32,000 bases of DNA from Puniceicoccales bacterium (GCA_031288595.1 JAITRB010000008.1:1-32000); one strand, 5' to 3'. Positions 2,663-31,934 are shown, numbered from the stretch's first letter. Numbers and translations are program-made. The notes: generated from the sequence alone by a model not told the origin.

Positions 2663-2766
2663 TCGCCGCCTTTGGAGCCCAGAAGGGGCTCCGGCCCGCT
2701 GCGCGGGCCGCGAGAGAGGAAAATGAAAAAAGGTTTTTTCATTTTCCTCCCTCGCAAAGGCGGCGA
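2663..2766 (+). repeat. Cloverleaf-like structured intergenic repeat, copy 1 (+ strand reads arm-A-B-C-arm)
   Basis: Closing stem tcgccgcctttg (2663-2674) / caaaggcggcga (2755-2766). Hairpin A gagccc(2675-2680)/gggctc(2686-2691). Hairpin B ggcccgc-tgc-gcgggcc (2693-2709). Hairpin C 2712-2753 (gagagaggaaaatgaaaaaa / ttttttcattttcctccctc, one A.C mismatch). It lies between the dnaX stop and the glycosidase start. Strand convention for this family: + means the + strand reads A-B-C. Confidence 0.85.
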
Positions 2767-6954: not shown

Positions 6955-7713
6955 TTAAACTTCTCCCTTTGCGAAGTCCTCTGCAAGGTAACGCCGGGCC
7001 CGTTCCAAGTCCTCCAGTGTGTCGATGCCCCTAGTGGGCTGAGTGGCCTCGAGGACATGGATACGATGGCCAGCCTCCAGGAACTGGAGCTGCTCCAGCT
7101 TCTCGGCCTCGGCGAGAACACCTCGGGGAAGATCGGGGAGCTTCCGCAGGAAGTTCTTGGTATAGCCGTAGAGACCGATGTGGGCCCAGAAAGTGTGCTG
7201 TGTTAGCCAGCACTTTTTCTCGACTCCGCGGAGGAAGGGAATCGGGCTGCGGGAGAAGTAGAGGGCCTGACGCTCCTGTCCCAGAACCACCTTGACGCGA
7301 TTGGGATTCTCCAGATCCGCCTCGGTGGAAATCCGATAGGCGGCCGTGAGGATGTCTCCACCGAAATCCTGGGCATGAGTTCTCATATCCGCCAGCAGTT
7401 TCGCGTCTATGAAGGGCTCGTCTCCCTGGACATTGAGGATGAAGTCGCCCCGAAAGCGCTCGGCGACAGAAGCGATGCGCGCCGTTCCGGAACAGCATCG
7501 GACATCGGTCATCCAGACCGTCGCGCCGAACTTTTTCGCCGTGTCCAGAATTTCCTCATGGTCGGCCAAGATGACGACTTCCTCAACACCCGGGAGGGCA
7601 GACGCGCGCTTCCAGGTGTGCTGGAGTAGCGGATGACCAGCCAAATCCAGCAGAAGCTTGCGCGGTAGTCGCGTGGAGGCGAAATGGGCCGGAATGGCGA
7701 TGGAGATTTTCAT
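6955..7713 (-). CDS. kdsB: 3-deoxy-manno-octulosonate cytidylyltransferase (CMP-KDO synthetase)
   Basis: 252 aa. MKISIAIPAHFASTRLPRKLLLDLAGHPLLQHTW... matches the KdsB N-terminal nucleotide-binding motif (IPAR..STRLP.K.L..i.G.P). NVQGDEPFI and the length are typical. Confidence 0.9.
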   Translation of the reverse strand: MKISIAIPAHFASTRLPRKLLLDLAGHPLLQHTWKRASALPGVEEVVILADHEEILDTAKKFGATVWMTDVRCCSGTARIASVAERFRGDFILNVQGDEPFIDAKLLADMRTHAQDFGGDILTAAYRISTEADLENPNRVKVVLGQERQALYFSRSPIPFLRGVEKKCWLTQHTFWAHIGLYGYTKNFLRKLPDLPRGVLAEAEKLEQLQFLEAGHRIHVLEATQPTRGIDTLEDLERARRYLAEDFAKGEV

Positions 7714-7918
7714 GCGCTGCCGCTGCGCCTAGGGCGATTCTCCCCAAGGGACCCCAGACCACTCGGCCAGAGACCTTATGTAAAGTCCGGGAGCCATTTG
7801 GAGCTAGAAAACAAGCCTATGCCTCGATGATTCTCCAGAAGACGGCGGCGCCCAGCTTCCTGCCCTCCTGCAGCATCGTCTAGAGCCGAGAATCGGTGGA
7901 AATGGGCCTAGAGGATCC

Positions 7919-9475: not shown

Positions 9476-9676
9476 AGGGAATCAACAAAAAGGGCACAAC
9501 TCTTTTGACATGACTCTCTGCTGCAGGAAGAAGAGATAAAGTCAACACATCTTCTCCGCAAATGCCTCGTCTAGCAGAAATTAGGAAGTATAATGGAAGC
9601 TTAAAGAATGCCTTCAATGTTCTCCGAGGCTATCGCCTAAATGGGAGTTTTCTTAATATCACGGCCAGGAGGTGAT

Positions 9677-11398
9677 ATGAAACAGAAATTCGCAGTTATC
9701 ACATTGCTCTGCAGTCTTTACGGCGCCGATCTCGCGGTCGCACAGAAAGAGGGACCTCAGGAACCTGGATCGCCTGAACGTTCCAGGAAAGTCCCCATTC
9801 CAGCTACCGCTACGAGAGCAAGGCCCGTCATACGGAGTCAAGGAACACGCGCACGCCCTACGGCTGCGACTCCTCAGCCACAAACGCAGGAACAGCCGCA
9901 TCGCAAGCGGCGGCACACAGAGAACTCCAAGCCCCAACAACAGGTCCCTGTTTTGCCGATGCCTTCGCCACGCCAGCAGGGAGCTGAATCGGCAGAAAGG
10001 GACCATCCAGCTCTAGCGCCACAGCCGAAACATCGCCAGTGCAAACACCGGCATTTTGTCTCTGGAGATCCTCCACAGCAAGGACAGAATTGTCTGGATG
10101 GAGGGGATTTACGGCGGGATGCTTCCGCGAGAAAAGCACCGGTGGCCCTATCTGCTGCGGCCAGCGCGTCGGTGGCCTTGGATGCTCAAGAGGAATCTCG
10201 TTTGCCAAGATTGGATCCACCGCAGAGTTCGCGGAGAAGGACCGAGGATCCAGGGCACAAGAATCGAAACAGAAATGTATTGGTGTCGGATCAAGAGGGA
10301 TCAGAGGAGGAGCAATCGCTCAGCGAAACATTTCCAAGGTCCCGACGAGGAAGAGCAGGATATTCAGAGGACTCGCAATTGGATTATCCCCCGGAGGGAG
10401 CTTTGCGCGCGGGTGCGTGTACACCTCTTGCCTTAAAAAAAGCAGAGGAGCAGCGACTAGCGCTTGATCCTTCCCTCTCTTCTGAGCCACTGAGATATAG
10501 GCCCGAGGCTCAAGATGATCTGGGGCAGGAAGAAGCTCTCATGGCAGAAGTAGCGCGAAGATCACGAAGACGGGTACGCGATGCGCAGCAAATAGCCTTC
10601 GGCTCTGAATCACAGCCGAAAAAATTGCCGCATCCCGGCAGGATAGGGGGCAGAAGACTGAGCCGGAAAAGCCTATATACCAAGACCTTTTGTGATCGAT
10701 TGAAACCTAACCTCATCCGGATCACGCAGCAGTGTATGCTGAACGGCTTCTCTGGGTTAATCGATGTCATCGTCAATAAAATCGAAAACGAGGGAGGATT
10801 AAAGGAGTTATCCCGGGGGGAATTTTTACTCGCCCATCTCAAACATGAAGAGACATTCGCTTACGTCCGCCGCATGGATCGCCCCGAAAATGAACAAATG
10901 GCACTCTATACCTACGCCGACGCCGTGTTGGCTTCAGATGATGGTTGGTTTAATAAAATCAAGCGCGACGTGCTGGATGCCATGATGCCTTACGTAGAGA
11001 TTTACAACGCTCTTGTGCAATTGTGCTCGCCAACAGACAGGATAGAGGAAACGCATTTTCTCGCCTATTTGGAAGCCTATCTCGATCCTATTTTCGATAC
11101 ACTACTGCCGAAAATCACCAATGCTGTATTTTCACTTGTGTCGGATACCCTTCATCCGCAGGGCTGTACCCTGTTCGGCAAATCGAAGCTCAGCTACAGT
11201 GAACGGGTACAGCTCGCCTCCGGTGCAGTAGATGTCTTAAAAGGGATATTTAAGAAAATCCTCAATGAGGATATCGTCGAGGGCATTAGCGGAATAGTCG
11301 GTGTGCTAATACCTCGTATGATGAATGAGCCAGTGCGGAGAGCCGCAGAACCTTCCGATACTGGACACATTCCCGTCCCAAGCTTTAGGGAAGATTGA
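9677..11398 (+). CDS. Hypothetical secreted protein: signal peptide, ~300-aa basic Pro/Gln/Ser/Arg-rich low-complexity region, unknown ~250-aa C-terminal domain
   Basis: The ATG at 9677 is preceded by AGGAGG (9667-9672). MKQKFAVITLLCSLYGADLAVAQ looks like a Sec signal peptide. The low-complexity N-terminal half is open in several frames. The C-terminal half (KTFCDRLKPNLIRITQQ...VLIPRMMNEP) is ordinary globular-looking sequence with no motif I recognise. The track start at 9641 is less likely. Confidence 0.65.
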   Translation: MKQKFAVITLLCSLYGADLAVAQKEGPQEPGSPERSRKVPIPATATRARPVIRSQGTRARPTAATPQPQTQEQPHRKRRHTENSKPQQQVPVLPMPSPRQQGAESAERDHPALAPQPKHRQCKHRHFVSGDPPQQGQNCLDGGDLRRDASARKAPVALSAAASASVALDAQEESRLPRLDPPQSSRRRTEDPGHKNRNRNVLVSDQEGSEEEQSLSETFPRSRRGRAGYSEDSQLDYPPEGALRAGACTPLALKKAEEQRLALDPSLSSEPLRYRPEAQDDLGQEEALMAEVARRSRRRVRDAQQIAFGSESQPKKLPHPGRIGGRRLSRKSLYTKTFCDRLKPNLIRITQQCMLNGFSGLIDVIVNKIENEGGLKELSRGEFLLAHLKHEETFAYVRRMDRPENEQMALYTYADAVLASDDGWFNKIKRDVLDAMMPYVEIYNALVQLCSPTDRIEETHFLAYLEAYLDPIFDTLLPKITNAVFSLVSDTLHPQGCTLFGKSKLSYSERVQLASGAVDVLKGIFKKILNEDIVEGISGIVGVLIPRMMNEPVRRAAEPSDTGHIPVPSFRED

Positions 11399-13612: not shown

Positions 13613-13693
13613 GCTGTCTTTGCCCCATGAAAATGTCGATTTTCATGGGGCAGCTCGCGGCGCGAGCGGATTCCTCCGGAATCCAAAGACAGC
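13613..13693 (-). repeat. Cloverleaf-like structured intergenic repeat, copy 2 (+ strand reads arm-C-B-A-arm)
   Basis: Closing stem gctgtctttg (13613-13622) / caaagacagc (13684-13693). Hairpin C ccccatgaaaat-gtcg-attttcatgggg (13623-13650). Hairpin B gctcgc-ggc-gcgagc (13653-13667). Hairpin A ggattcc-tcc-ggaatcc (13668-13684). It lies between acpS and the thiamine pyrophosphokinase gene. Confidence 0.88.
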
Positions 13694-14442: not shown

Positions 14443-14544
14443 GGGGCCGCCTTTGCACCGGAGAGGGAAGGGAAAATTTTCCCTTCCCCCTCCGGTGACG
14501 CCCGCGTAGCGGGCGGGAGCCCGAAGGGCTCCAAAGGCGGCCCC
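14443..14544 (-). repeat. Cloverleaf-like structured intergenic repeat, copy 3 (+ strand reads arm-C-B-A-arm)
   Basis: Closing stem ggggccgcctttg (14443-14455) / caaaggcggcccc (14532-14544). Hairpin C 14456-14497 (caccggagagggaagggaaaa/ttttcccttccccctccggtg, one A.C mismatch). Hairpin B cgcccgc-gta-gcgggcg (14499-14515). Hairpin A ggagccc-gaa-gggctcc (14516-14532). Confidence 0.88.
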
Positions 14545-15859: not shown

Positions 15860-17971
15860 ATGCGCCCCTGCGATGTGAAACGCCTGCGGCGCTTTTTTCA
15901 GGATTATTTCAATGATTCTGGGCCTGGGTCCGAAGGAGGATCCCGGGGTCTTTTCAGGCAAATCCTCGTTCCGGACCCCGCTGTCGCCGCAGCCCTCAAA
16001 AAATTCCTCTGCCTTCTCCTCCTCTTTTCCCTCACCCGCCTCCTCTTTTTCTGTGTCCAGCACGATTACTTCGCCTCGCTGAGTTTGAGAGAAACGGTTT
16101 GCAGTTTCCTCTGGGGCGTCCGTTTTGACCTCTCCGTCGTCTCTTGGGTATCCCTTTTACTCTGGGGGCTTTGGGCATCCCCTCTGCCACTCAAGACCCA
16201 TCCGCTCATCCGGCGCCTAGCCGACCTGGGTCTCTGGTTCGCGGGTTCCCTGGCCCTATTGCCCAATATCGCCGATGCGAAGTACTTCTCCTTCAGCTCC
16301 CAGCGGATGACAGCGGACATCTTCCGGCAGCTGAAAACCCTGGCCGGAGAAGATGTCGGGAGTTATGGGGCGATACTTCGGGACTCCTGCGGCCTGTGGC
16401 TCCTATGGATTGTCCTCAGCATTTTTCTGGGAAATTTCATCAAGTGCCGGCACTTCGAAGAGGATTTGGCCTGGGCCCGTATACGGAGGGAAAGAACACT
16501 GCCCCGAATGGGCATTCGCTGTCTGAGCTTTGCGTTCTGGATCTGTATGTTGATTATCGGCTGCCGCGGCGGCCTGTGTGGACGGGTTCTGGATCCTCCC
16601 TGCGTCGTGCGCCTGTCCCAGCAGCCCTCAGGCGGGGTTTTGATGGGCAACTCGAGCTTCAGCATCCTCAAGTCTCTCGGCCGGAGACCCATCCGAAGCT
16701 TTCACTTCTTCGACAGCGCCGAGGAACTAAATGGGATCTACAGTCCCTTTCACGTGGCGAAACCCCAGAGTCCGTATTTCGGTCGCTACAAGGGCAAGAA
16801 TATCCTCATCCTCATCCTGGAGAGCTTTTCTGCCGAACATGTCGGGTTTCTGGACCGAGAATTCAAGGAGAAGCAGAGCGATTGCACCCCTTTTCTGGAC
16901 GCACTCGCCCAGCGCTCCCTCTGTTTCGATGGATTCGCCAACGGCAGCATTTCTCCCGATGGGCTGGTCTCCATCTTCTCCTCCATCCCCGCTCTACAGG
17001 GAATCCCTTACATACGCAGTTCTCGAGGGATTGCGAACCATATCGAGGGGCTCAGCTCTCTGCTGGCCAGGAGTGGTTACCACGACTCCTTCTTCTATGG
17101 GGGTAAGCGCTACTCCTGCGACTTCGACTGTTATTGGCGAAAGGTCGGGCTGAAGCGCTACTTCTGCGAGGAGAATTTTCCTCAAAAGATAACGAAGAAC
17201 ATCTACTCCGGTTGGGGCATTCACGACCTGGCCTGGCTGTCCTACGCGGCCGATGTGCTGTCTCGGGAACCGGAACCCTTCATCTCGGGGATCTTCACGC
17301 TCTCCTCACACCATCCCTTCGGAATTCCCAAGGGATTTGAGAATACTTTTCCCAGGGGTCGGCATCCCATCCAGGAGCTCGTGGCCTATGCGGACTATGC
17401 CCTGAAGTGCTTCTTCGAAAAGATCTCCTCCGAGCCCTGGTACAAAAACACGCTCTTTGTACTCGTTGCCGATCATACCTCTGGAGCGGTGGAGCCCTAT
17501 TACCATGGCCCCATCGGAAGCTTTTCGATTCCCATCCTCCTCTTCGATCCGGAGGGCCACCTTCCCCTGGAATGTGCCGGACAGCTGGCCCAGCAAATCG
17601 ACCTTTTCCCGACGCTCCTGCACCTTCTGGGTCATGCCGAAGCCCATGTGGCCTTCGGTCATGATCTCTTGGATGAAAAACATCCGCATTTCGCCGTGAA
17701 TTTTCGCCACGAAATCTACCAGTTGCTCGGCGATGACTACCTCCTGCAATTCGATGGAGAGAAGAGCATTGGTTTTTTCGACAGGAAAAAAGACCCACTG
17801 GCCCAGAGAAATCTCCTGTCAGAACCGCAATACGACGCGCTTCGGCGTTCGTATGAACGATGCCTTCAGGCCTTTCTGCAGCACTACAGCCAGGTATTGA
17901 CACAGGACACGCTGACGCTTGAGAACTGGATGAGGGCGAAGAATTCCAAAGCTTCGGGATTTACAATCTGA
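15860..17971 (+). CDS. LTA-synthase-family / sulfatase-like membrane protein (phosphoglycerol or phosphoethanolamine transferase type)
   Basis: 703 aa. An N-terminal multi-TM region is followed by an alkaline-phosphatase-superfamily domain: NILILILESFSAEHVGFL, WGIHDLAWLSY, TLSSHHPF, VLVADH. Confidence 0.78.
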   Translation: MRPCDVKRLRRFFQDYFNDSGPGSEGGSRGLFRQILVPDPAVAAALKKFLCLLLLFSLTRLLFFCVQHDYFASLSLRETVCSFLWGVRFDLSVVSWVSLLLWGLWASPLPLKTHPLIRRLADLGLWFAGSLALLPNIADAKYFSFSSQRMTADIFRQLKTLAGEDVGSYGAILRDSCGLWLLWIVLSIFLGNFIKCRHFEEDLAWARIRRERTLPRMGIRCLSFAFWICMLIIGCRGGLCGRVLDPPCVVRLSQQPSGGVLMGNSSFSILKSLGRRPIRSFHFFDSAEELNGIYSPFHVAKPQSPYFGRYKGKNILILILESFSAEHVGFLDREFKEKQSDCTPFLDALAQRSLCFDGFANGSISPDGLVSIFSSIPALQGIPYIRSSRGIANHIEGLSSLLARSGYHDSFFYGGKRYSCDFDCYWRKVGLKRYFCEENFPQKITKNIYSGWGIHDLAWLSYAADVLSREPEPFISGIFTLSSHHPFGIPKGFENTFPRGRHPIQELVAYADYALKCFFEKISSEPWYKNTLFVLVADHTSGAVEPYYHGPIGSFSIPILLFDPEGHLPLECAGQLAQQIDLFPTLLHLLGHAEAHVAFGHDLLDEKHPHFAVNFRHEIYQLLGDDYLLQFDGEKSIGFFDRKKDPLAQRNLLSEPQYDALRRSYERCLQAFLQHYSQVLTQDTLTLENWMRAKNSKASGFTI

Positions 17972-18455: not shown

Positions 18456-18917
18456 ATGGCCGAGAGGAAGCAGTCCCGCCAGGCATTTTCCGTCGCCGAA
18501 ATCCTGATCGTCCTTGCCATTTTTTCCGCGGTGGTAGGGGTTCTTATCACGGGCTTAGGCTCCCTGCAGAAGGGCTTTTCGCGCACGCTGGCGCTCCACG
18601 GAGAAGTGCAGCGGGCGATTCGCCTCGCCCGTTACCAATCGGGCAAGACGCAGGGCTCGGTTTTTATCTGGTACCCGTCGGACCACTCCTACCTCGGGAT
18701 TACGGACGACACGGGAAAGGAGTTGGAGAAAATCGAACTGCCGGATAAGCTAGCTTTTCAGTTCCTGGAGGTCGAGGCCAGTCGGGAATTGCCCTCGCTG
18801 CGCGTCGACCCCAGCGGTGTCCTGACACCTTTCCGCCTCGCCTATCGGGCCGAGAATCGGGAATTTCAGAACTATAAGGCAGATATCTTCAGCGGCCGCC
18901 TGGCTCTGCTGAAGTAG
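18456..18917 (+). CDS. Prepilin-type N-terminal domain protein (minor pseudopilin-like)
   Basis: MAERKQSRQA|FSVAEILIVLAIFSAVVGVL resembles the class III signal with conserved E+5. The rest has no motif I recognise. The track start is a GTG at 18438 overlapping the gspG stop. The ATG at 18456 is preferred. Confidence 0.55.
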   Translation: MAERKQSRQAFSVAEILIVLAIFSAVVGVLITGLGSLQKGFSRTLALHGEVQRAIRLARYQSGKTQGSVFIWYPSDHSYLGITDDTGKELEKIELPDKLAFQFLEVEASRELPSLRVDPSGVLTPFRLAYRAENREFQNYKADIFSGRLALLK

Positions 18918-19035: not shown

Positions 19036-19134
19036 GGGGCTGTCTTTGGCTCCCTTCGGGAGCGTCCGCGCAGCGGACAACGGCGCAGGACATGAAAACA
19101 GCGTTTTCATGTCCTGCGCCGCAAAGACAGCCCC
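19036..19134 (+). repeat. Cloverleaf-like structured intergenic repeat, copy 4 (+ strand reads arm-A-B-C-arm)
   Basis: Closing stem ggggctgtctttg (19036-19048) / caaagacagcccc (19122-19134). Hairpin A gctccc-ttc-gggagc (19049-19063). Hairpin B gtccgc-gca-gcggac (19064-19078). Hairpin C cggcgcaggacatgaaaac-agc-gttttcatgtcctgcgccg (19081-19121, 19-bp perfect stem). It lies in the convergent spacer between the pseudopilin gene and PFOR. Confidence 0.9.
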
Positions 19135-19182
19135 ACGCTCATGTCTTTTTCGATAGATTTTCTGAAGCAGCCACCTTTGACC

Positions 19183-22100
19183 TTATGAGGTCACCGACTG
19201 GGCCAATTTTTGGTAGAGCGCGTATTTGTCCCGAACATAGGCCTCTTCCTGCTGAAGAAGCTGCTCTGCACGTTCAGGATCCTGGCGCATCAGGAGATCA
19301 AAGCGCGTCTCGGCCGACCGGTATTCCCGAAGAGGAAGGCTGGGCTCTTTAGAATCTAGAACCAGGGGTGGCAGCTGCTGAGCCTTTCGCCGCGGGTCGT
19401 AGCGGTAGAGTGGCCAGTAGCCCGATTCCACCGCCCGTTTCTGTTGCTGCAGACTGAGCGAAAGCGGATAGCCGTGGGCGATACAGGGACAGTAGGCGAT
19501 GATGAGCGAGGGGCCGTCGTAGGATTCCGCTTCCCGAAAGGCGGTGAAGGTCTGGCTGTCCTTCGCCCCCAGCGCGACCTGAGCCACGTAGCAGTACCCA
19601 TAGCCCATGGCGAGGAGGCCGAGGTCTTTCTTGGGCAGCGCCTTACCGGCGGAGGCGAACTTGGCCACTGCTCCCGTCGGGGTCGCCTTCGACTGCTGTC
19701 CTCCGGTGTTGGAGTAGACCTCCGTGTCGAGCACGAGAACATGGACATTCCTCCCAGAGGCCAGGACATGGTCCAAACCGCCGTAGCCAATGTCGTAGGC
19801 CCAGCCGTCCCCCCCGACGATCCAGACACTCCTCTGGATCAAATTATCGGCCAGGCTCAACAGATAAACACTTTCGGGATCAGTTTTCCCCATCAGGCGC
19901 CGGCGGAGTTCCTGGATCTGGAGACGCTGTTCCTGGATTTCCGGCTCCGTTTTCTGGGGATTATTCAAGATTTTTCCGACGAAATCCTCGCCGAGGAGGG
20001 AGGCCTGTCGCCGGAGGAGCTCCGCTGCCATGGCTCGGTTTTGCTCGTACGCGGCGCGCAGGCCATAGCCGTATTCCGCATTGTCCTCGAAGAGGGAATT
20101 GCTCCAGGCCGGCCCACGCCCCATGGCATCGCTCGTGTAGGGCGTGGTCGGAAGATTGCCACCGTAGATGGAGGAACAACCGGTCGCATTGGCGAGGAGC
20201 AGGCGGTCTCCGAGGATTTGGGTCAGCAGCTTGAGATAAGGCGTTTCGCCGCAGCCGGCACAGGCCCCGGAAAACTCAAAGAGTGGCTGACAGAACTGCG
20301 AGGATTTGATATCCGTGGCTGACACGGGTGTCTGGGGCAGGTCTTGAAAATATCCGTAATGCTCCAGTTCTCGCTCGAAAACCTCTGCCTTTGGCATCAT
20401 CACCAGTGCTTTTTCCCCCCTCTCTGTCTTAGCCCTGACCGGACAGGCTTCGGCGCAGAGATTGCAGCCCGTACAGTCCTCCGGCGAGACCTGGATGCTG
20501 TAGGCATGGTGGGGATGCTCCCGGGAGCGAAAATCCACCGAGCGAAAGCCGGAGGGGGGGGCTTTCTCCAGCCTTTCCTTTGGAAAAAATTTCACCCGTA
20601 GGGCAGCGTGAGGGCAGACCGAGATGCATTTATTGCACTGGATGCAGATGGCCGGATTCCAGATGGGGATTTCCTCTGCGATGTTGTGCTTTTCCCAGTG
20701 GGACGTTCCCGTTGGCCAGGTACCGTCGACGGGTATCGCGCTGACGGGCAGCTCATCGCCGCGGCCAGCCAGCAGGATTTTCGTGACGTTTTTGATGAAC
20801 TCTGGCGCATCATCCGGAATCTTGTCCTGCAGGGGCATTCCATCGATGGGCTGTTCCGCCACCTTCACTTCTTCCAGCTGCTCCAGGACCAAATCCACCG
20901 CCTCGCCGTTTTTTTTCACCACCGCCTCTCCCTTTTTGCCATAGGTCTTGCGTATCGCTTCTTTGATCCGGGCCACGGCTTCCGCCGGTGGCAGGATTCG
21001 GGAAAGCGCGAAGTAGCCGACCTGCATGATCGTATTGATGCGGCCGCCGATGCCGACCTCCCGCGCGAGGTGATAGGCGTCGATGACGAAGAGCTTCATC
21101 TGCAGCGCCTGGAGCTTTTCTTGAAATTCCCTCGGCAGATGCGGCCATACCTTTCCTGCACCGTAGGGACTATTTAGGAGAAAAATCGTCCCCATCTTAG
21201 CTGTTGCGAGCACATCGTGGGTATGGACGAAGGAGAACTGATGGCAGCCGATGAAGTCTGCTTCCTGGATGAGATAGGGTGCCTCGATGGGCCTGGGACC
21301 AAAACGCAGGTGCGAAGTGGTCATGGCACCGGACTTCTTGGAGTCGTAGACAAAATAGGCCTGAGCGAAGTGCTCTGTCGCCTGCCCGATGATCTTGATA
21401 GTGTTCTTATTGGCACCAACAGTCCCATCCGAGCCGAGACCGTAGAAAATGCTCTCGTACACGGAGGGATCCTTGGGCCGAAACTGAGGGGAGTAGGATA
21501 AGGAGAGGTGGCTGACGTCGTCTTCGATGCCGACCGTGAAATGCGCCCTGGGAGACCCTCTTTTCAGCTCATCGAAGACCGCCTTCGCCATCGCCGGCGA
21601 GAACTCCTTGGATCCCAAGCCGTAGCGACCGGCGATGATTTTGGGACGGAAGTCATCCGATAAATGGCCCTCCTGCCGCCCCTCCTGCAGGGCCGTGACG
21701 ACATCCAGATAGAGCGGTTCACCTAGAGTACCCGCTTCCTTGCTGCGGTCCAGAACCGCGATGGAACGGATACTCGGCACCAGGGCCCGAAGAAAATCTT
21801 CCAGGGCAAAGGGCCGGTACATGTGTATCTGCAGGACGCCGACCTTCTCCCCTTCCTGCCGAAGGAATTTGGCTGTCTCCTCAAGGGTCTTGCAGCCGGA
21901 ACCCATGCAGATGACCACGCGCTCAGCCTCGGGATCGCCGCTGTAGCGGAAGAGCCGATACGTCCGCCCCGTCAGCTTGGCGAAGGAATCCATGAGGGAT
22001 TGCAACTGGGCAGGCAATGCCTGGTAGTGGGGATTCACCGCCTCGCGGCCCTGAAAGAAGACGTCGGGATTCTGGGCCGTTCCGCGGATGAAGGGATGCT

Positions 22101-22740
22101 CGGGACTTAGCGCACGCGAGCGGAAGGCGATGAGGTCTGCCGGATCGATCATCGCCTGCAGAACGCTATCCCCGAGTGGGCAGAAACTGTTGATCTCATG
22201 CGAGGTGCGGAAGCCATCGAAAAAGTGAAGAAAGGGGACGCGGCTGCGCAAGGTGGCGGCATGGGCGATGCAGGCCAAGTCCTGGGCCTCCTGCACCGAA
22301 GCGGAGGAGAGGAGAGCGAAGCCCGTCTGCCGGCAGGCCATGACATCCGAATGGTCGCCGAAAATCGACAGCGCATGCGTGGCCAGGCTCCGGGCCGCCA
22401 CGTGTAGGCAAAAGGCCTGCAGTTCCCCCGCAATCTTGTACAGCTCGGGGATCATCAGCAGCAGACCCTGAGAGGAGGTGAAGGTCGTCACCAGCGAGCC
22501 ACCCTGCAGTGCCCCGTGCATGGCTCCTGCCACACCGCCCTCGGATTGCATCTGGAAGACTTCCGGCACCTGTCCCCAGAGGTTCGGCCTACGGCCCATG
22601 GCCCATTCATCGCAGTGTTCGGCCATCGGCGATGAGGGGGTGATGGGGTAGATGGCCACCAACTCGCTGAGCCGATAGGCCACATCGGCTACCGCTTCAT
22701 TGGCATCGGCAATCCTATACGGACGATCGTTCTTTTCCAT
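19183..22740 (-). CDS. nifJ: Pyruvate:ferredoxin (flavodoxin) oxidoreductase, single-polypeptide type
   Basis: 1185 aa, the canonical length. Two 4Fe-4S ferredoxin motifs (CIQCNKCISVCPH, CTGCNLCAEACP), a TPP-binding region (GGDGWAYDIGYGGLDH) and CAGCGETPY. Confidence 0.95.
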   Translation of the reverse strand: MEKNDRPYRIADANEAVADVAYRLSELVAIYPITPSSPMAEHCDEWAMGRRPNLWGQVPEVFQMQSEGGVAGAMHGALQGGSLVTTFTSSQGLLLMIPELYKIAGELQAFCLHVAARSLATHALSIFGDHSDVMACRQTGFALLSSASVQEAQDLACIAHAATLRSRVPFLHFFDGFRTSHEINSFCPLGDSVLQAMIDPADLIAFRSRALSPEHPFIRGTAQNPDVFFQGREAVNPHYQALPAQLQSLMDSFAKLTGRTYRLFRYSGDPEAERVVICMGSGCKTLEETAKFLRQEGEKVGVLQIHMYRPFALEDFLRALVPSIRSIAVLDRSKEAGTLGEPLYLDVVTALQEGRQEGHLSDDFRPKIIAGRYGLGSKEFSPAMAKAVFDELKRGSPRAHFTVGIEDDVSHLSLSYSPQFRPKDPSVYESIFYGLGSDGTVGANKNTIKIIGQATEHFAQAYFVYDSKKSGAMTTSHLRFGPRPIEAPYLIQEADFIGCHQFSFVHTHDVLATAKMGTIFLLNSPYGAGKVWPHLPREFQEKLQALQMKLFVIDAYHLAREVGIGGRINTIMQVGYFALSRILPPAEAVARIKEAIRKTYGKKGEAVVKKNGEAVDLVLEQLEEVKVAEQPIDGMPLQDKIPDDAPEFIKNVTKILLAGRGDELPVSAIPVDGTWPTGTSHWEKHNIAEEIPIWNPAICIQCNKCISVCPHAALRVKFFPKERLEKAPPSGFRSVDFRSREHPHHAYSIQVSPEDCTGCNLCAEACPVRAKTERGEKALVMMPKAEVFERELEHYGYFQDLPQTPVSATDIKSSQFCQPLFEFSGACAGCGETPYLKLLTQILGDRLLLANATGCSSIYGGNLPTTPYTSDAMGRGPAWSNSLFEDNAEYGYGLRAAYEQNRAMAAELLRRQASLLGEDFVGKILNNPQKTEPEIQEQRLQIQELRRRLMGKTDPESVYLLSLADNLIQRSVWIVGGDGWAYDIGYGGLDHVLASGRNVHVLVLDTEVYSNTGGQQSKATPTGAVAKFASAGKALPKKDLGLLAMGYGYCYVAQVALGAKDSQTFTAFREAESYDGPSLIIAYCPCIAHGYPLSLSLQQQKRAVESGYWPLYRYDPRRKAQQLPPLVLDSKEPSLPLREYRSAETRFDLLMRQDPERAEQLLQQEEAYVRDKYALYQKLAQSVTS

Positions 22741-23039
22741 GATTTTTCAGCCTTCCAGAGGGAGCCGATACCCGCCATGAAGCGATTTTGTCCCCATCGG
22801 TCAAGGGAATGAAATCGGGTCCTTCTTTTGTCCCTTTTAAGTGGGGAGCTTCCCGATAACTTGAAGCGGCTGAGCGAGCCGTTGCGATTCGAAGTTGGGA
22901 GATGGGAGTTACCCGGCCTATGGGCGGCTCTGATGGAGCTCATGGAGCTGCCCAGCGTGTGCGCAGTACCTGCCGGAGAGCAAAGGGGGAGCTGGCGCCA
23001 TCCGTAGCTTTCTATTGGCAGGACCTGGGTGTGTCCGGT

Positions 23040-23136
23040 CATCGCCTTTGCGTTCCCTGCAAGAAAAGGGGACTTTTGCTTGCAGGGAACGCCGCCTGCA
23101 TCGCAGGCACGAGCCCGAAGGGCTCAAAAGGCGATG
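23040..23136 (-). repeat. Cloverleaf-like structured intergenic repeat, copy 5 (+ strand reads arm-C-B-A-arm)
   Basis: Closing stem catcgcctttg (23040-23050) / caaa(a)ggcgatg (23125-23136, 1-nt bulge). Hairpin C 23051-23091 (cgttccctgcaag..aaaa-ggggac-tttt.g.cttgcagggaacg). Hairpin B gcctgc-atc-gcaggc (23094-23108). Hairpin A gagccc-gaa-gggctc (23111-23125). It lies between the tsf stop and the PFOR start. Confidence 0.85.
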
Positions 23137-23347
23137 CCCCACCGCTCAAACGAACGATAGAATCCCCAAACAAGCCCGCTTTCTATCTTCCATAAGTCCT
23201 GACGCTGCTCCTGCCCTAAAAGCCGTTCAGCGATGGGCCTTTGGAATCTCAAAGGCCGTGGCATTCCTCGGCACAGTTAGCAAGGCCCTTAATAATCCTT
23301 CGAATGATCCGGATGCCTCATTTTGGGAAGCGAAAGCTGCGAGAGCA

Positions 23348-23938
23348 CTATTCACCTAATTGGTAGCGGACAAAGCGGCCGATGCGGATGTTTTCGCCGA
23401 TGCGGGCCACGACGGAGGCTAGGTGCTCCTCAAGGCGAATGTCCTGATTGCGCGCGAAGGGCTGTTCGAGGAGGCAAACCTGGCTAAGCCACTTGTCTAT
23501 CTTGCCCTCCACGATTTTTTCGACGACGGCTTGCGGCTTGCCGGCCACCTGGGCGTTGGCGATTTCCCTCTCCTGATCGATGACGGGCTGAGGAACGGAG
23601 TCACGGGAAAGGTAAAGCGGATTCGAGGCCGCGATGTGCAGGCAGATGTCCGCTGCCAGCTCCCGGAAATCCTCATTCCTCGCGACGAAGTCCGTCTCGC
23701 AGTTCAGCTCCAGGAGAACACCGATCCGTCCGCCGTTATGGACGTAGGACTCGATGATGCCGGCATGTGTTTCCCGACCGGCCTTTTTTGCAGCCGTTGC
23801 GGAGCCCTTTTTCCGGAGCAGGATGATGGCCTCTTCGATGCTGCCCTCGGCTTCGCCCAGCGCCTTTTTGCAGTCGACGAACCCAGCTCCACTGCGCCGT
23901 CTCAATTCATTCACCTTCGCTGCTGTGATCTCTGACAT
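23348..23938 (-). CDS. tsf: Translation elongation factor Ts (short form)
   Basis: MSEITAAKVNELRRRSGAGFVDCKKALGEAEGSIEEAIILLRKKG is the canonical EF-Ts UBA-like N-terminus. It sits immediately downstream of rpsB, the conserved rpsB-tsf pair. Confidence 0.92.
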   Translation of the reverse strand: MSEITAAKVNELRRRSGAGFVDCKKALGEAEGSIEEAIILLRKKGSATAAKKAGRETHAGIIESYVHNGGRIGVLLELNCETDFVARNEDFRELAADICLHIAASNPLYLSRDSVPQPVIDQEREIANAQVAGKPQAVVEKIVEGKIDKWLSQVCLLEQPFARNQDIRLEEHLASVVARIGENIRIGRFVRYQLGE

Positions 23939-23957
23939 CTCAATGCTCCTCCTCGAT

Positions 23958-24746
23958 TTAAATGTCCGCCTCTCCCTCGATTTTCACCGCATCCGCTGCG
24001 TCGGAAACGATGGCTTCTCTGCTTGGAATTGTCTTCAACTGTCGGGATTCCCTCTTTTTTGCCTCGAAGAGCGCCTGCCCTCGTTCGATGGCCTCGACCA
24101 AGCAGGACAGGAGCAGCTGGATCGAGCGGGCCAAATCGTCGTTGGCGGGGATAGGATAGGTCACGAGCTCTGGATTCGAATTCGTGTCGACCAGCGCCAC
24201 GACGGGAATGCCCAGGCGCCTTGCCTCGGCGACGGCGATGCTCTCCTTGTAGATGTCGACGACCAATAGGGTGGATGGCAATTGGGTCACCTCGACGAGG
24301 CCCTCGAAGCTGCGGAAGAGGCGGGCCATTTGGCGGCGGATAACTGAGGCTTCCTTTTTCAACATGGCGTCGAGGGAGCCGTCCTCCTGCATCCGGAGAT
24401 AGTGGCGGTACTTGTTGAGGCTGCGATGAACGGTTTCGAAATTTGTCAGGCAACCGCCGAGCCAACGGTTGGGCACGAAGGGCATGTGAACCGAGCGGGC
24501 GGACTCGCGAACCGCCTCCTGGGCCTGTGCCTTGGTGCCGACAAACCAGATGCTCTGACCGCTGGAGGCGGTTTTTTCGAGAAAATCGCATGCCTTTTGC
24601 AATTGCCCCAAGGTCTTTTCCAGGTCGATGATGGAAAGGCCGCCGAGGCAGCCGTAGACGAATTTCTGGGACTTCGGGTTCCAGCGACGCCGCTGATGGC
24701 CGAGGTGTACTCCTGCCTCGAAGAGGTCCTGTATTGTCACGTTCAT
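23958..24746 (-). CDS. rpsB: 30S ribosomal protein S2
   Basis: MNVTIQDLFEAGVHLGHQRRRWNPKSQKFVYG is the canonical uS2 N-terminus. 262 aa. Confidence 0.95.
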   Translation of the reverse strand: MNVTIQDLFEAGVHLGHQRRRWNPKSQKFVYGCLGGLSIIDLEKTLGQLQKACDFLEKTASSGQSIWFVGTKAQAQEAVRESARSVHMPFVPNRWLGGCLTNFETVHRSLNKYRHYLRMQEDGSLDAMLKKEASVIRRQMARLFRSFEGLVEVTQLPSTLLVVDIYKESIAVAEARRLGIPVVALVDTNSNPELVTYPIPANDDLARSIQLLLSCLVEAIERGQALFEAKKRESRQLKTIPSREAIVSDAADAVKIEGEADI

Positions 24747-24897
24747 AGATACTCCGTACCCTCGCGGGCCTTGGATGGAAACATGGGTTGAAGGTTGAGG
24801 CTCTCTTCATGAGGGGAGAAGTTCCCTTGGCAAGTTCTTTCTTGACAGAGGATTGTTCGAGGAGGGGTTGGGTAGAAAGGTGGCTGGGAGGTCAGTC

Positions 24898-24992
24898 GGC
24901 TGTCTTTGCAGAGCAGGGTATGAAAACAGCGTTTTCATGCCCTGCTCTGTCGTCCGCTGCGCGGACGCTCCCGAAGGGAGCCAAAGACGGCC
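24898..24992 (-). repeat. Cloverleaf-like structured intergenic repeat, copy 6 (+ strand reads arm-C-B-A-arm)
   Basis: Closing stem ggctgtctttg (24898-24908) / caaagacggcc (24982-24992, one T.G pair). Hairpin C cagagcagggtatgaaaac-agc-gttttcatgccctgctctg (24909-24949, one T.G pair). Hairpin B gtccgc-tgc-gcggac (24952-24966). Hairpin A gctccc-gaa-gggagc (24967-24981). It is an inverted near-twin of copy 4. Confidence 0.9.
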
Positions 24993-30912: not shown

Positions 30913-31006
30913 GCTGTCTTTGGATTCCGGAGGAATCAGCCCGCTGCGCGGGCTCCAAGGGGAGAAAAAGGAAAAACTTTCCTTTTTCTCCCCTTGCAAA
31001 GACAGC
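30913..31006 (+). repeat. Cloverleaf-like structured intergenic repeat, copy 7 (+ strand reads arm-A-B-C-arm)
   Basis: Closing stem gctgtctttg (30913-30922) / caaagacagc (30997-31006). Hairpin A gattcc-gga-ggaatc (30923-30937). Hairpin B agcccgc-tgc-gcgggct (30938-30954). Hairpin C caaggggagaaaaaggaaa-aac-tttcctttttctccccttg (30956-30996). It lies in the convergent spacer between dnaJ and the TPR-like gene and is followed by A7. Confidence 0.9.
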
Positions 31007-31844: not shown

Positions 31845-31934
31845 TTCCCGCTGTCTTGGAATCCCTTTGGGATTCGCCCGCTTCGCGGGCCGCAGGGAGG
31901 CCGCTCCGCGGCCTCCCTGCCAAGACAGCGGGAA
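31845..31934 (+). repeat. Cloverleaf-like structured intergenic repeat, copy 8 (+ strand reads arm-A-B-C-arm)
   Basis: Closing stem ttcccgctgtcttgg (31845-31859) / ccaagacagcgggaa (31920-31934), 15 bp. Hairpin A aatccc-ttt-gggatt (31860-31874). Hairpin B gcccgc-ttc-gcgggc (31876-31890). Hairpin C gcagggaggccgc-tcc-gcggcctccctgc (31892-31920). This is the only copy whose hairpin C is entirely GC-rich. Confidence 0.88.

Follow-up and report, generated by a model that had tools for sequence, protein, structure and literature searches.

The 32,000-nucleotide stretch of DNA analyzed here (GCA_031288595.1 JAITRB010000008.1:1-32000, below "the window") comes from a Puniceicoccales bacterium and contains eight palindromic elements of a single architecture, in which a closing stem encloses three hairpins, termed A, B and C (Table 1). 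Two of these elements, members 4 and 6 (W4 and W6), were the starting point of this work. W4 lies between two convergent genes, one at 18456-18917 on the plus strand and the PFOR gene at 19183-22740 on the minus strand, and W6 lies between the leuS stop codon (25030) and the rpsB start codon (24746), both genes being on the minus strand. A preliminary description of this DNA, made from the sequence alone, had singled out W4 and W6 as inverted near-twins that differ almost entirely by compensated base-pair swaps and whose hairpin C loop is flipped, and had proposed either selection on the stem or the copying of one arm from the other as the cause. We find that the two copies are paralogous members of one high-copy family, and that the constraint on this family is more probably exerted on DNA palindromes than on a transcribed RNA. 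Loci sampled outside the window are cited by their L numbers.

Table 1. Palindromic elements of the window and the parts of members 4 and 6 (CM, covariance model score; coordinates counted from the first nucleotide of the window)
Feature	Coordinates	Strand	Remarks
Member 1	2665..2764	+	CM 80.5 bits; closing stem GCCGCCTTT
Member 2	13613..13693	-	CM 77.4 bits; absent at the orthologous site of L047
Member 3	14446..14541	-	CM 87.3 bits
Member 4 (W4), whole element	19036..19134	+	CM 90.3 bits; A-B-C order on +
W4 closing stem, 5' arm GGGGCTGTCTTTG	19036..19048	+	pairs with 3' arm CAAAGACAGCCCC at 19122-19134
W4 hairpin A	19049..19063	+	GCTCCC-TTC-GGGAGC
W4 hairpin B	19064..19078	+	GTCCGC-GCA-GCGGAC; triloop of the C-GNA-G type
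W4 hairpin C	19081..19121	+	loop AGC at 19100-19102
Member 5 (W5)	23041..23135	-	CM 78 bits; downstream of tsf; orthologues L055:6019 and L072:1578
Member 6 (W6), whole element	24898..24992	-	CM 81.9 bits; A-B-C order on -
W6 hairpin C	24909..24949	-	loop at 24928-24930, AGC on +, GCT on -
W6 hairpin C, pair 11			T.G on +, C.A on -
W6 hairpins B and A	24952..24981	-	B at 24952-24966, A at 24967-24981; same as the W4 hairpins
Member 7	30913..31006	+	CM 95.4 bits; between convergent dnaJ and TPR gene
Member 8	31850..31929	+	CM 76.5 bits; upstream of the TPR gene

Direct alignment of W4 with the reverse complement of W6 showed that all 30 nucleotides of hairpins A and B are the same in the two copies, as had been claimed. 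Hairpin C, which follows hairpin B of W4 after a 2-nt linker (aa), reads CGGCGCAGGACATGAAAAC-AGC-GTTTTCATGTCCTGCGCCG and forms 19 pairs, all of them perfect; its counterpart in the reverse complement of W6 is CAGAGCAGGGCATGAAAAC-GCT-GTTTTCATACCCTGCTCTG. From W4 to W6 the three swaps first described in this hairpin are indeed compensated, with G-C replaced by A-T at pair 2, C-G by A-T at pair 4 and A-T by G-C at pair 10. The one uncompensated change in hairpin C (C-G to C.A at pair 11) and a single T to C change in the closing stem of W6 are likewise present, but the wobble pairing ascribed to both exists only on the plus strand, where each reads G.T. The minus strand, which gives the A-B-C order of W6 and the sense of the neighboring leuS and rpsB, has C.A at both places. 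In A-B-C orientation the hairpin C loops are AGC in W4 and GCT in W6, exact reverse complements, and the plus strand reads AGC in both copies as had been noted. A repeat finder lists the pair (as I1) with a length of 96 nt and 88% complementarity. Either strand of W4 and W6 folds alike into the closing stem and three hairpins with both RNA and DNA parameters, with fold z-scores of −8 to −13.7. When 7 substitutions were placed at random over 38 stem positions, three or more compensated pairs arose in a fraction of 8e−5 of 1,000,000 trials.

We then asked how far such elements extend beyond these two copies. Counted together with its complement, the motif GCTGTCTTTG appears at 11 places in the window, where 1.9 are expected, and a scan for GCTGTCTTTG-N55-85-CAAAGACAGC, which covered one genome per species, returned 68 loci, about 50 of them from the Puniceicoccales metagenome bins JAITKE, JAITIW and JAIRRP and the remainder single chance matches in unrelated taxa. 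A Python parser recovered 109 well-formed elements, every one of them in the window or in Puniceicoccales loci. A covariance model (R1) built from 74 of these 109 elements found exactly the eight copies in the window, with no other match there, and 133 copies in related Puniceicoccales DNA totaling 549 kb. R1 gave no matches in 18 unrelated loci, nor in 58 kb of more distant Puniceicoccales that included Puniceicoccus vermicola. Viral contigs contained no element, the one match among them covering just the two closing-stem 10-mers with nothing inside, and metagenomes scanned for the A/B core of the W4/W6 subfamily yielded 2 chance matches, both without the element. These counts therefore establish a real and dense family confined to one uncultured Puniceicoccales (Verrucomicrobiota) lineage. 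The density is about one element per 4 kb of sampled DNA, a figure that outside the window is an upper estimate because the related loci were chosen for carrying elements. Near-identical copies have unrelated flanks and are therefore dispersed repeats rather than segmental duplications. None of the elements matched Rfam, either at the gathering score or at E ≤ 1, and we could not find the family described in Rfam or in the literature searched.

The parsed elements are 77-115 nt long (median 93), and either strand forms a closing stem with two mini-hairpins, A and B, and a long hairpin C; the linkers between them are 0-2 nt, so the whole is a closed four-way junction. The closing stem comprises 10-18 bp, made up of a conserved 10-mer (with the variants GCTGTCTTTG, GCCGCCTTT, GCTGCCTTTG, GCYGGCTTT and ATCGCCTTT) and usually a subfamily-specific extension of 3-8 bp. 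Hairpins A and B have stems of 6-7 bp, and 104 of the 109 A hairpins and 100 of the 109 B hairpins are perfect palindromes without gaps. Their loops are nearly all 3 nt long and are closed by a C-G pair in 106/109 A and 103/109 B hairpins, and the two mutually complementary loop frames GNA and TNC are about equally frequent (37 and 41 in A, 37 and 42 in B). The sequences d(GCGNAGC) and C-GNA-G are known as unusually stable DNA mini-hairpin motifs (PMC13037366, PMC3201870), and d(GCGNAGC) is literally present in many B hairpins. That two arms of the closed junction carry the C-GNA-G motif suggests that some ligand recognizes the DNA structure. Hairpin C, by contrast with this core, is hypervariable in sequence and 26-52 nt long, and is a perfect ungapped palindrome in 46 of the 109 elements. 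Its 5' arm is purine-rich (71%, with 96 of 108 arms above 50%), and pyrimidines prevail in the 5' arm of the closing stem (28% purine).

Several smaller features of the element were also recorded. ATGAAA lies near the hairpin C apex in 31 of 133 copies, and TGAAA occurs 1-5 nt from the apex on the hairpin C 5' arm 37 times against 3.2 expected (alignment A3 of the 133 members); both the TGAAA excess and the purine/pyrimidine bias of the arms are strand-symmetric. The loop frames of A and B are correlated (GNA/GNA 21, TNC/TNC 21, mixed 19; Fisher p = 0.005), a correlation that may reflect phylogenetic non-independence, and across the 109 parsed elements the strand carrying GNA is unrelated to A-B-C order. 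A kissing interaction between the A and B loops was considered and rejected, since the two loops are reverse complements of each other in 6 of 109 elements, no more than the 6.9 expected.

Family-wide covariation and counts between nearest relatives strongly support the proposal that the stems are maintained. Among the 133 members, standard pairs fill 97.9% of the cells, compared with 77% in shuffles and 39-50% with slid partners, and compensatory changes occur in 28 of the 33 modelled pairs, although alignment A3 was fitted to the structure and its pair counts are somewhat inflated. In 25 independent nearest-relative comparisons of hairpin C, 354 pairs were unchanged, 38 had compensated double changes and 27 had single changes (23 transitions and 4 other), where by our own estimate about 2 doubles are expected under independent substitution. 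Within the five-member subfamily to which W4 and W6 belong, 10 of the 19 pairs of hairpin C are invariant and 5 are compensated; of the other four, one has a G.U in a single copy and three have mismatches in some copies. The preliminary description had held that single changes as frequent as paired ones, together with a fixed loop orientation, would speak against stem maintenance; uncompensated changes are in fact about as frequent as compensated ones in this subfamily, which goes half of that way, and stem maintenance is not refuted by it.

A structure so strongly covarying could be selected as a transcribed RNA, for instance as a non-canonical terminator, an mRNA 3'-end stabilizer or a multi-copy small RNA, and we therefore looked for strand-specific signals around the elements, calling genes with our own codon model trained on long open reading frames (ORFs) of the same data. 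An RNA role would suit the location of the elements, of which 105 of 109 lie between genes, the median distance past a stop codon being 151 nt, as well as the strength of the covariation and the stable RNA folds (z −8 to −13). However, 56 elements lie in tandem, 19 in convergent and 15 in divergent intergenic regions, roughly in proportion to the regions themselves (143, 32 and 33), so that divergent, promoter-side regions carry elements too. Where the neighboring genes are in tandem, 24 elements read A-B-C in the direction of transcription and 32 in the opposite direction, and G.U pairs number 26 on the sense and 19 on the antisense strand. Over all elements, G.T pairs are balanced between the strands (48 on the one reading A-B-C, 43 on its complement), as are the 49 G.T-type and 51 A.C-type positions of hairpin C; such wobbles make up only about 1% of pairs, and both non-Watson-Crick pairs of W6 are, as noted above, C.A in the mRNA sense. 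We thus found neither a fixed orientation relative to transcription nor a tolerance of G.U on the sense strand. No terminator-like U-tract ends at any element and, on both strands, the upstream flanks are T/G-rich and the downstream flanks A/C-rich, which is U-rich before and A-rich after the structure and the reverse of terminator polarity; a role as intrinsic terminator was rejected on these grounds. Together with the absence of any Rfam match, these observations make an RNA-level element unlikely. Because the pattern expected of one RNA strand, with G.U tolerated and A.C avoided, is absent, we assign the constraint to the DNA palindrome, or at least to a fold that is the same in either orientation.

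The account that we favor, and consider probable, is that of a DNA-level structured repeat similar to repetitive extragenic palindromic (REP) sequences or miniature inverted-repeat transposable elements (MITEs), with constraint on the palindrome of both strands and no RNA gene involved. Selection would act on the DNA inverted repeat as a hairpin or cruciform of both strands, or at least on a fold possible in either orientation, and not on one transcribed strand. The conserved core of closing stem and hairpins A and B may be recognized by some structure-specific protein, and arm C would need only to stay a hairpin. Such an element would be dispersed, gained and lost among relatives and retained at many orthologous sites, as REP sequences and their composites, the bacterial interspersed mosaic elements (BIMEs), or MITE-type repeats are. 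The swaps that separate W4 and W6 would then have arisen by mutation in one arm followed by fixation of the matching change through selection, perhaps aided by templated correction from arm to arm, and inversion of the hairpin apex between its own arms would be an occasional event that may or may not underlie the GCT loop of W6. Several points weigh against this account. Extrusion of the hairpin or cruciform in vivo is deduced rather than directly observed, and no partner protein was found in the element-bearing loci, whose genomes are partly sampled. Palindromes fold alike as RNA in either direction, so that an orientation-independent RNA role, such as the protection of mRNA 3' ends proposed for REPs, is compatible with the strand symmetry. 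The comparison of sense and antisense wobbles (26 versus 19) is modest in size, the gene calls depend on our own caller, and the structure-fitted alignment inflates the covariation to some extent.

Among the nearest known systems are REP, BIME and REPIN repeats, which like the present family are extragenic, palindromic and of high copy number, occur in both orientations, form species-specific subfamilies at conserved positions and have been proposed to act on single-stranded or structured DNA. A REP is a single imperfect hairpin of 20-40 nt that carries an unpaired tag, GTAG or CGTC, and REPs often form inverted dimers (PMC3733652). The elements described here differ in being closed four-way junctions of 80-115 nt that enclose three hairpins and lack such a tag, and in having no linked Y1 transposase in the element-bearing loci of these partly sampled genomes. 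A RayT-like Y1 transposase is encoded by Puniceicoccus vermicola (318 aa, L077:2105-3061, near rpsB), but in a tblastn search it had no match in about 570 kb of element-bearing loci from partly sampled genomes. The RayT-bearing loci of P. vermicola and of another Puniceicoccales bin, conversely, contain no element, and a link to a RAYT finds no support in the loci sampled. The P. vermicola transposase is present there in many diverged copies and is widespread in marine and other metagenomes. Integron attC sites offer a further parallel, since they too keep structure over sequence and act as folded single-stranded DNA, which for the present elements is a presumption; the R and L boxes, extrahelical bases, cassette array and uniform orientation of attC sites have no counterpart here.

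Three elements lie within a gene or overlap the end of one. A family member at L041:1209-1300 (JAITKE010000008.1) lies in frame inside mutL (ORF 577-2622) and is thus an intragenic, translated palindrome, the only clear intragenic case among the 109. It falls at approximately aa 211-241, past the ATPase domain (aa 26-120) and ahead of the DNA_mis_repair domain (aa 250-366), which is followed by MutL_C (aa 497-595). The Rickettsia palindromic elements (RPEs) are palindromic repeats that likewise occur in frame within genes, but the single intragenic case, the different architecture and the different host lineage set the present family apart from them. The elements at L035:477-570 and L006:7699-7794 overlap the ends of called genes, as judged from predicted starts and stops, and the former is predicted to span the last ~20 codons and the stop codon of a 2.4-kb gene.

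Orthologous loci allow the evolution of individual copies to be followed. The window genome is syntenic with the JAITKE loci L047 and L055 at 78-88% nucleotide identity and with L072 at 85-88%, and L055 and L072 are themselves about 91% identical. The read set SRR14710895 contains a contig of 99.8% identity. W4 has orthologues at L055:2127-2219 and L072:5372-5464. Between W4 and its L055 orthologue there are 0 changes at 50 positions of the closing, A and B stems while the flanking genes are 85.6% identical and the intergenic DNA around the element is unalignable; the core of the element is therefore under strong constraint or homogenization. Hairpin C evolves faster than this core, through compensated changes. 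Of the two window copies, W6 is nearer than W4 to the W4 orthologues, with which it has both the arm CAGAGCAGGG and the mismatched C.A of pair 11 in common, so W4, with three double changes and no mismatch, is the derived copy. On the tree (W,(L055,L072)), pair 12 of hairpin C is A-T in W4 and W6, A.G in L055 and C-G in L072, and in the element downstream of tsf, pair 5 of hairpin B is T-A in W5, G.A in L055 and G-C in L072. The presence of mismatched intermediates in orthologues shows that at least some of the double changes were not simultaneous.

Elements have also been gained or lost: L047 lacks member 2 of the window, the window lacks the element at L047:2938, and L055 lacks the one at L072:5583. 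At these presence/absence sites no insertion boundaries could be read, the surrounding intergenic DNA being unalignable. In the more distant L073 and L074, with RpsB identities of 80% and 76%, the leuS-rpsB, dnaJ-downstream and TPR-upstream sites hold other, genome-specific subfamilies (L073:7976-8074, L074:9730-9827, L073:1613-1711 and L074:2909-3008), and the leuS-rpsB copy of L074 has the opposite orientation. This situation resembles that of the species-specific REPs found at conserved enterobacterial sites. Two contig ends fall within about 110 nt of where an orthologue of W6 would be expected: L055 ends (at 7682) about 80 nt short of it, and L072 starts (at 1) 108 nt upstream of rpsB. 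It is possible that repeats of this kind break short-read assemblies.

Genome-specific subfamilies at shared sites would also be expected if gene conversion or recombination exchanged whole hairpins between copies, in which case the compensated differences between W4 and W6 would have been imported ready-made. Exchange of this kind could further explain why core modules are identical at many loci of one genome and why the ratio of transitions to transversions in the double changes is unlike that in the single ones. Yet no donor carrying the W4 arm CGGCGCAGGAC was found within the 32 kb of the window genome, stepwise intermediates exist, and an imported palindrome merely shifts the upkeep of perfect pairing to the donor copy. 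We regard exchange between copies as an improbable source of the swaps.

The preliminary description had also suggested that a templating or foldback mechanism might act between the arms, and had expected a bimodal loop orientation relative to the A-B order as its signature. Bimodality was not seen: in the two subfamilies whose loops mark orientation, the counts are 12:1 and 6:0. Among 129 related pairs of elements, 79 have hairpin C in the same orientation, 15 are flipped and 35 are ambiguous, and nearly all of the flipped pairs involve one element, L015:2666. The whole hairpin C of this element is the reverse complement of that in its 12 relatives, the loops of A and B being unchanged; its 4-nt loop reads GGGA in place of TCCC, a 1-nt bulge lies on the other arm, and its distance from the relatives is 11-13 in the same orientation versus 4-7 when flipped, in keeping with the footprint of a template-switch mutation (TSM). 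A hairpin can therefore become inverted between its two arms, but this is rare. The flipped loop of W4 and W6 is real as an observation but is no proof of inversion. Read in A-B-C order, the hairpin C loops of their subfamily are AGC in W4, GGC in L055, GCC in L072, GCT in W6 and TGT in L056:7023, and AGC-GGC-GCC-GCT is a chain of single substitutions of which every intermediate was observed. AGC and GCT, like GGC and GCC, are reverse-complement pairs, and GGC and GCC are one base apart. The chain accounts for the W4/W6 flip equally well, the distance between the two hairpins is 9 in the same orientation versus 7 flipped, and all orientation comparisons within the subfamily are ambiguous with differences of less than 3 nt. 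Moreover, the pair 11 mismatch has the same orientation in W6 and L055, so any inversion can have involved no more than the loop and the apex with its perfect pairing. Thus one clean inversion speaks for the foldback proposal, the lack of bimodality and the stepwise intermediates speak against it, and a loop that flips back and forth finds weak support.

These data bear on a purely mutational explanation, in which switching of the template within or between strands makes paired changes and inverts loops in the absence of any selection on the structure. The mechanism is a published one: template switches, quasipalindrome correction and loop inversions account for multi-base compensation in one step and for loops that are exact reverse complements (PMC8794818, PMC5453318). 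In addition to L015:2666, it could explain why W4, with its three double changes, is free of the mismatches that its relatives carry, and why transversion-type changes make up 18 of 38 doubles versus 4 of 27 singles (Fisher p = 0.008). The last contrast, however, fits equally well with a faster removal or completion of transversion mismatches, or with the import of ready-made palindromic segments. Against template switching as the sole cause stand the nearly fixed orientation within marked subfamilies, the persistence across speciation of mismatches (A.G and G.A in L055, between the states of W and L072), and the observed single-substitution intermediates that join the W4 and W6 loops. The complete conservation of core stems at ~85% gene identity would furthermore require selection or homogenization beyond a repair bias. 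Relative to published template-switch mutations, then, inversions are rare in this family and mismatches arise stepwise, and the mechanism is unneeded for W4 and W6. We consider it rather doubtful that mutation alone produced the pattern.

The remaining two explanations appear very unlikely. In the first, the element would be a classical MITE, that is, a non-autonomous derivative of a DDE insertion sequence (IS) with the closing stem as its terminal inverted repeats. The family shares with MITEs, and with Correia, ERIC, Nezha and pneumococcal BOX repeats, a size of ~100 bp, terminal inverted repeats (here 10-18 bp), strong predicted folding and dispersal through intergenic DNA with unrelated flanks, and its presence differs among relatives. 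The pneumococcal BOX is, moreover, a modular repeat. Unlike such elements, the family shows no excess of target-site duplications over chance: direct repeats at the element ends are about as frequent as in shuffles, with none of 2 or 3 nt and a single 4-nt repeat against 0.4 expected. Nor was a parent IS found in the sampled loci, where the only IS remnant seen (L073:12731-13579) was rejected as parent because its ends are unrelated. A hypervariable yet perfectly paired arm beside core stems that are 100% conserved across diverged genomes also distinguishes the family from MITEs, for which persistence at orthologous sites with compensatory evolution would be unusual. The family thus misses the defining features of REPs (the tagged hairpin), MITEs (target-site duplications), terminators (the U-tract) and RNA families (strand-specific constraint).

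In the second explanation, which we would regard as a long shot, the family would be a new class of chromosomal four-way-junction element whose variable arm is actively re-templated by a dedicated structure-specific enzyme, for example by a nick at the junction or loop followed by hairpin-primed resynthesis. If so, the arm would be kept palindromic, diversified in blocks and sometimes flipped, and the swaps would be an enzymatic footprint rather than a product of selection. The architecture of the element itself has an analogue in the terminal repeats of parvoviruses such as adeno-associated virus (AAV), where a closing stem likewise surrounds small palindromes whose orientation can vary between copies. 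In AAV the flip and flop forms occur at about 50:50 as a result of hairpin-primed replication. Subfamilies of the present family, by contrast, keep to nearly a single orientation, and their elements sit at internal positions of the chromosome.

As a DNA-level repeat, the family amounts to about one structured palindrome per 4 kb sampled that has gone unannotated in a lineage known solely from metagenome bins. With more than 100 paralogous hairpins, an orthologous series and equal constraint on both strands, it also provides a test bed in which selection-driven compensation may be told from template-switch correction, and it already displays both the stepwise compensation of transversions through persistent mismatches and one clean hairpin inversion.

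Other differences between the window and its relatives came to light in these comparisons. A different multi-hairpin palindromic element lies at L047:7030-7140 (reverse strand; JAITKE010000053.1) and is absent at the corresponding window site (7760-7876). Its closing stem pairs GGCGCGATGGCC with GGCCATCGCGCC, its internal hairpins include GGCCCCTTTGC-GAA-GCAAAGGGGCC, and the CTTTG/CAAAG motif appears in it again. The structures of this kind in these genomes seem to belong to more than one family. Between two genes at L055:930-1093 there is a tandem array of ~35-45-nt units (...GAAAAATTCC..AGC..GA.GGAA...), and the window counterparts of these genes are just 11 nt apart (17927-17938). L047:4450-4981, compared with window 9914-10043, contains ~400 nt of extra sequence with an internal direct duplication of ~190 nt (CACTGGAAAGCATGGAGTCACTCATATACAGCGATTCCGAT... 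twice), and this extra segment falls within one long window ORF (9641-11398). Finally, in L076 (JGI 3300042605), a Puniceicoccales bin of a related lineage without the repeat family, a type III secretion cluster and two very large ankyrin-repeat proteins adjoin leuS-rpsB-tsf, a gene content suggesting that this lineage may be host-associated.

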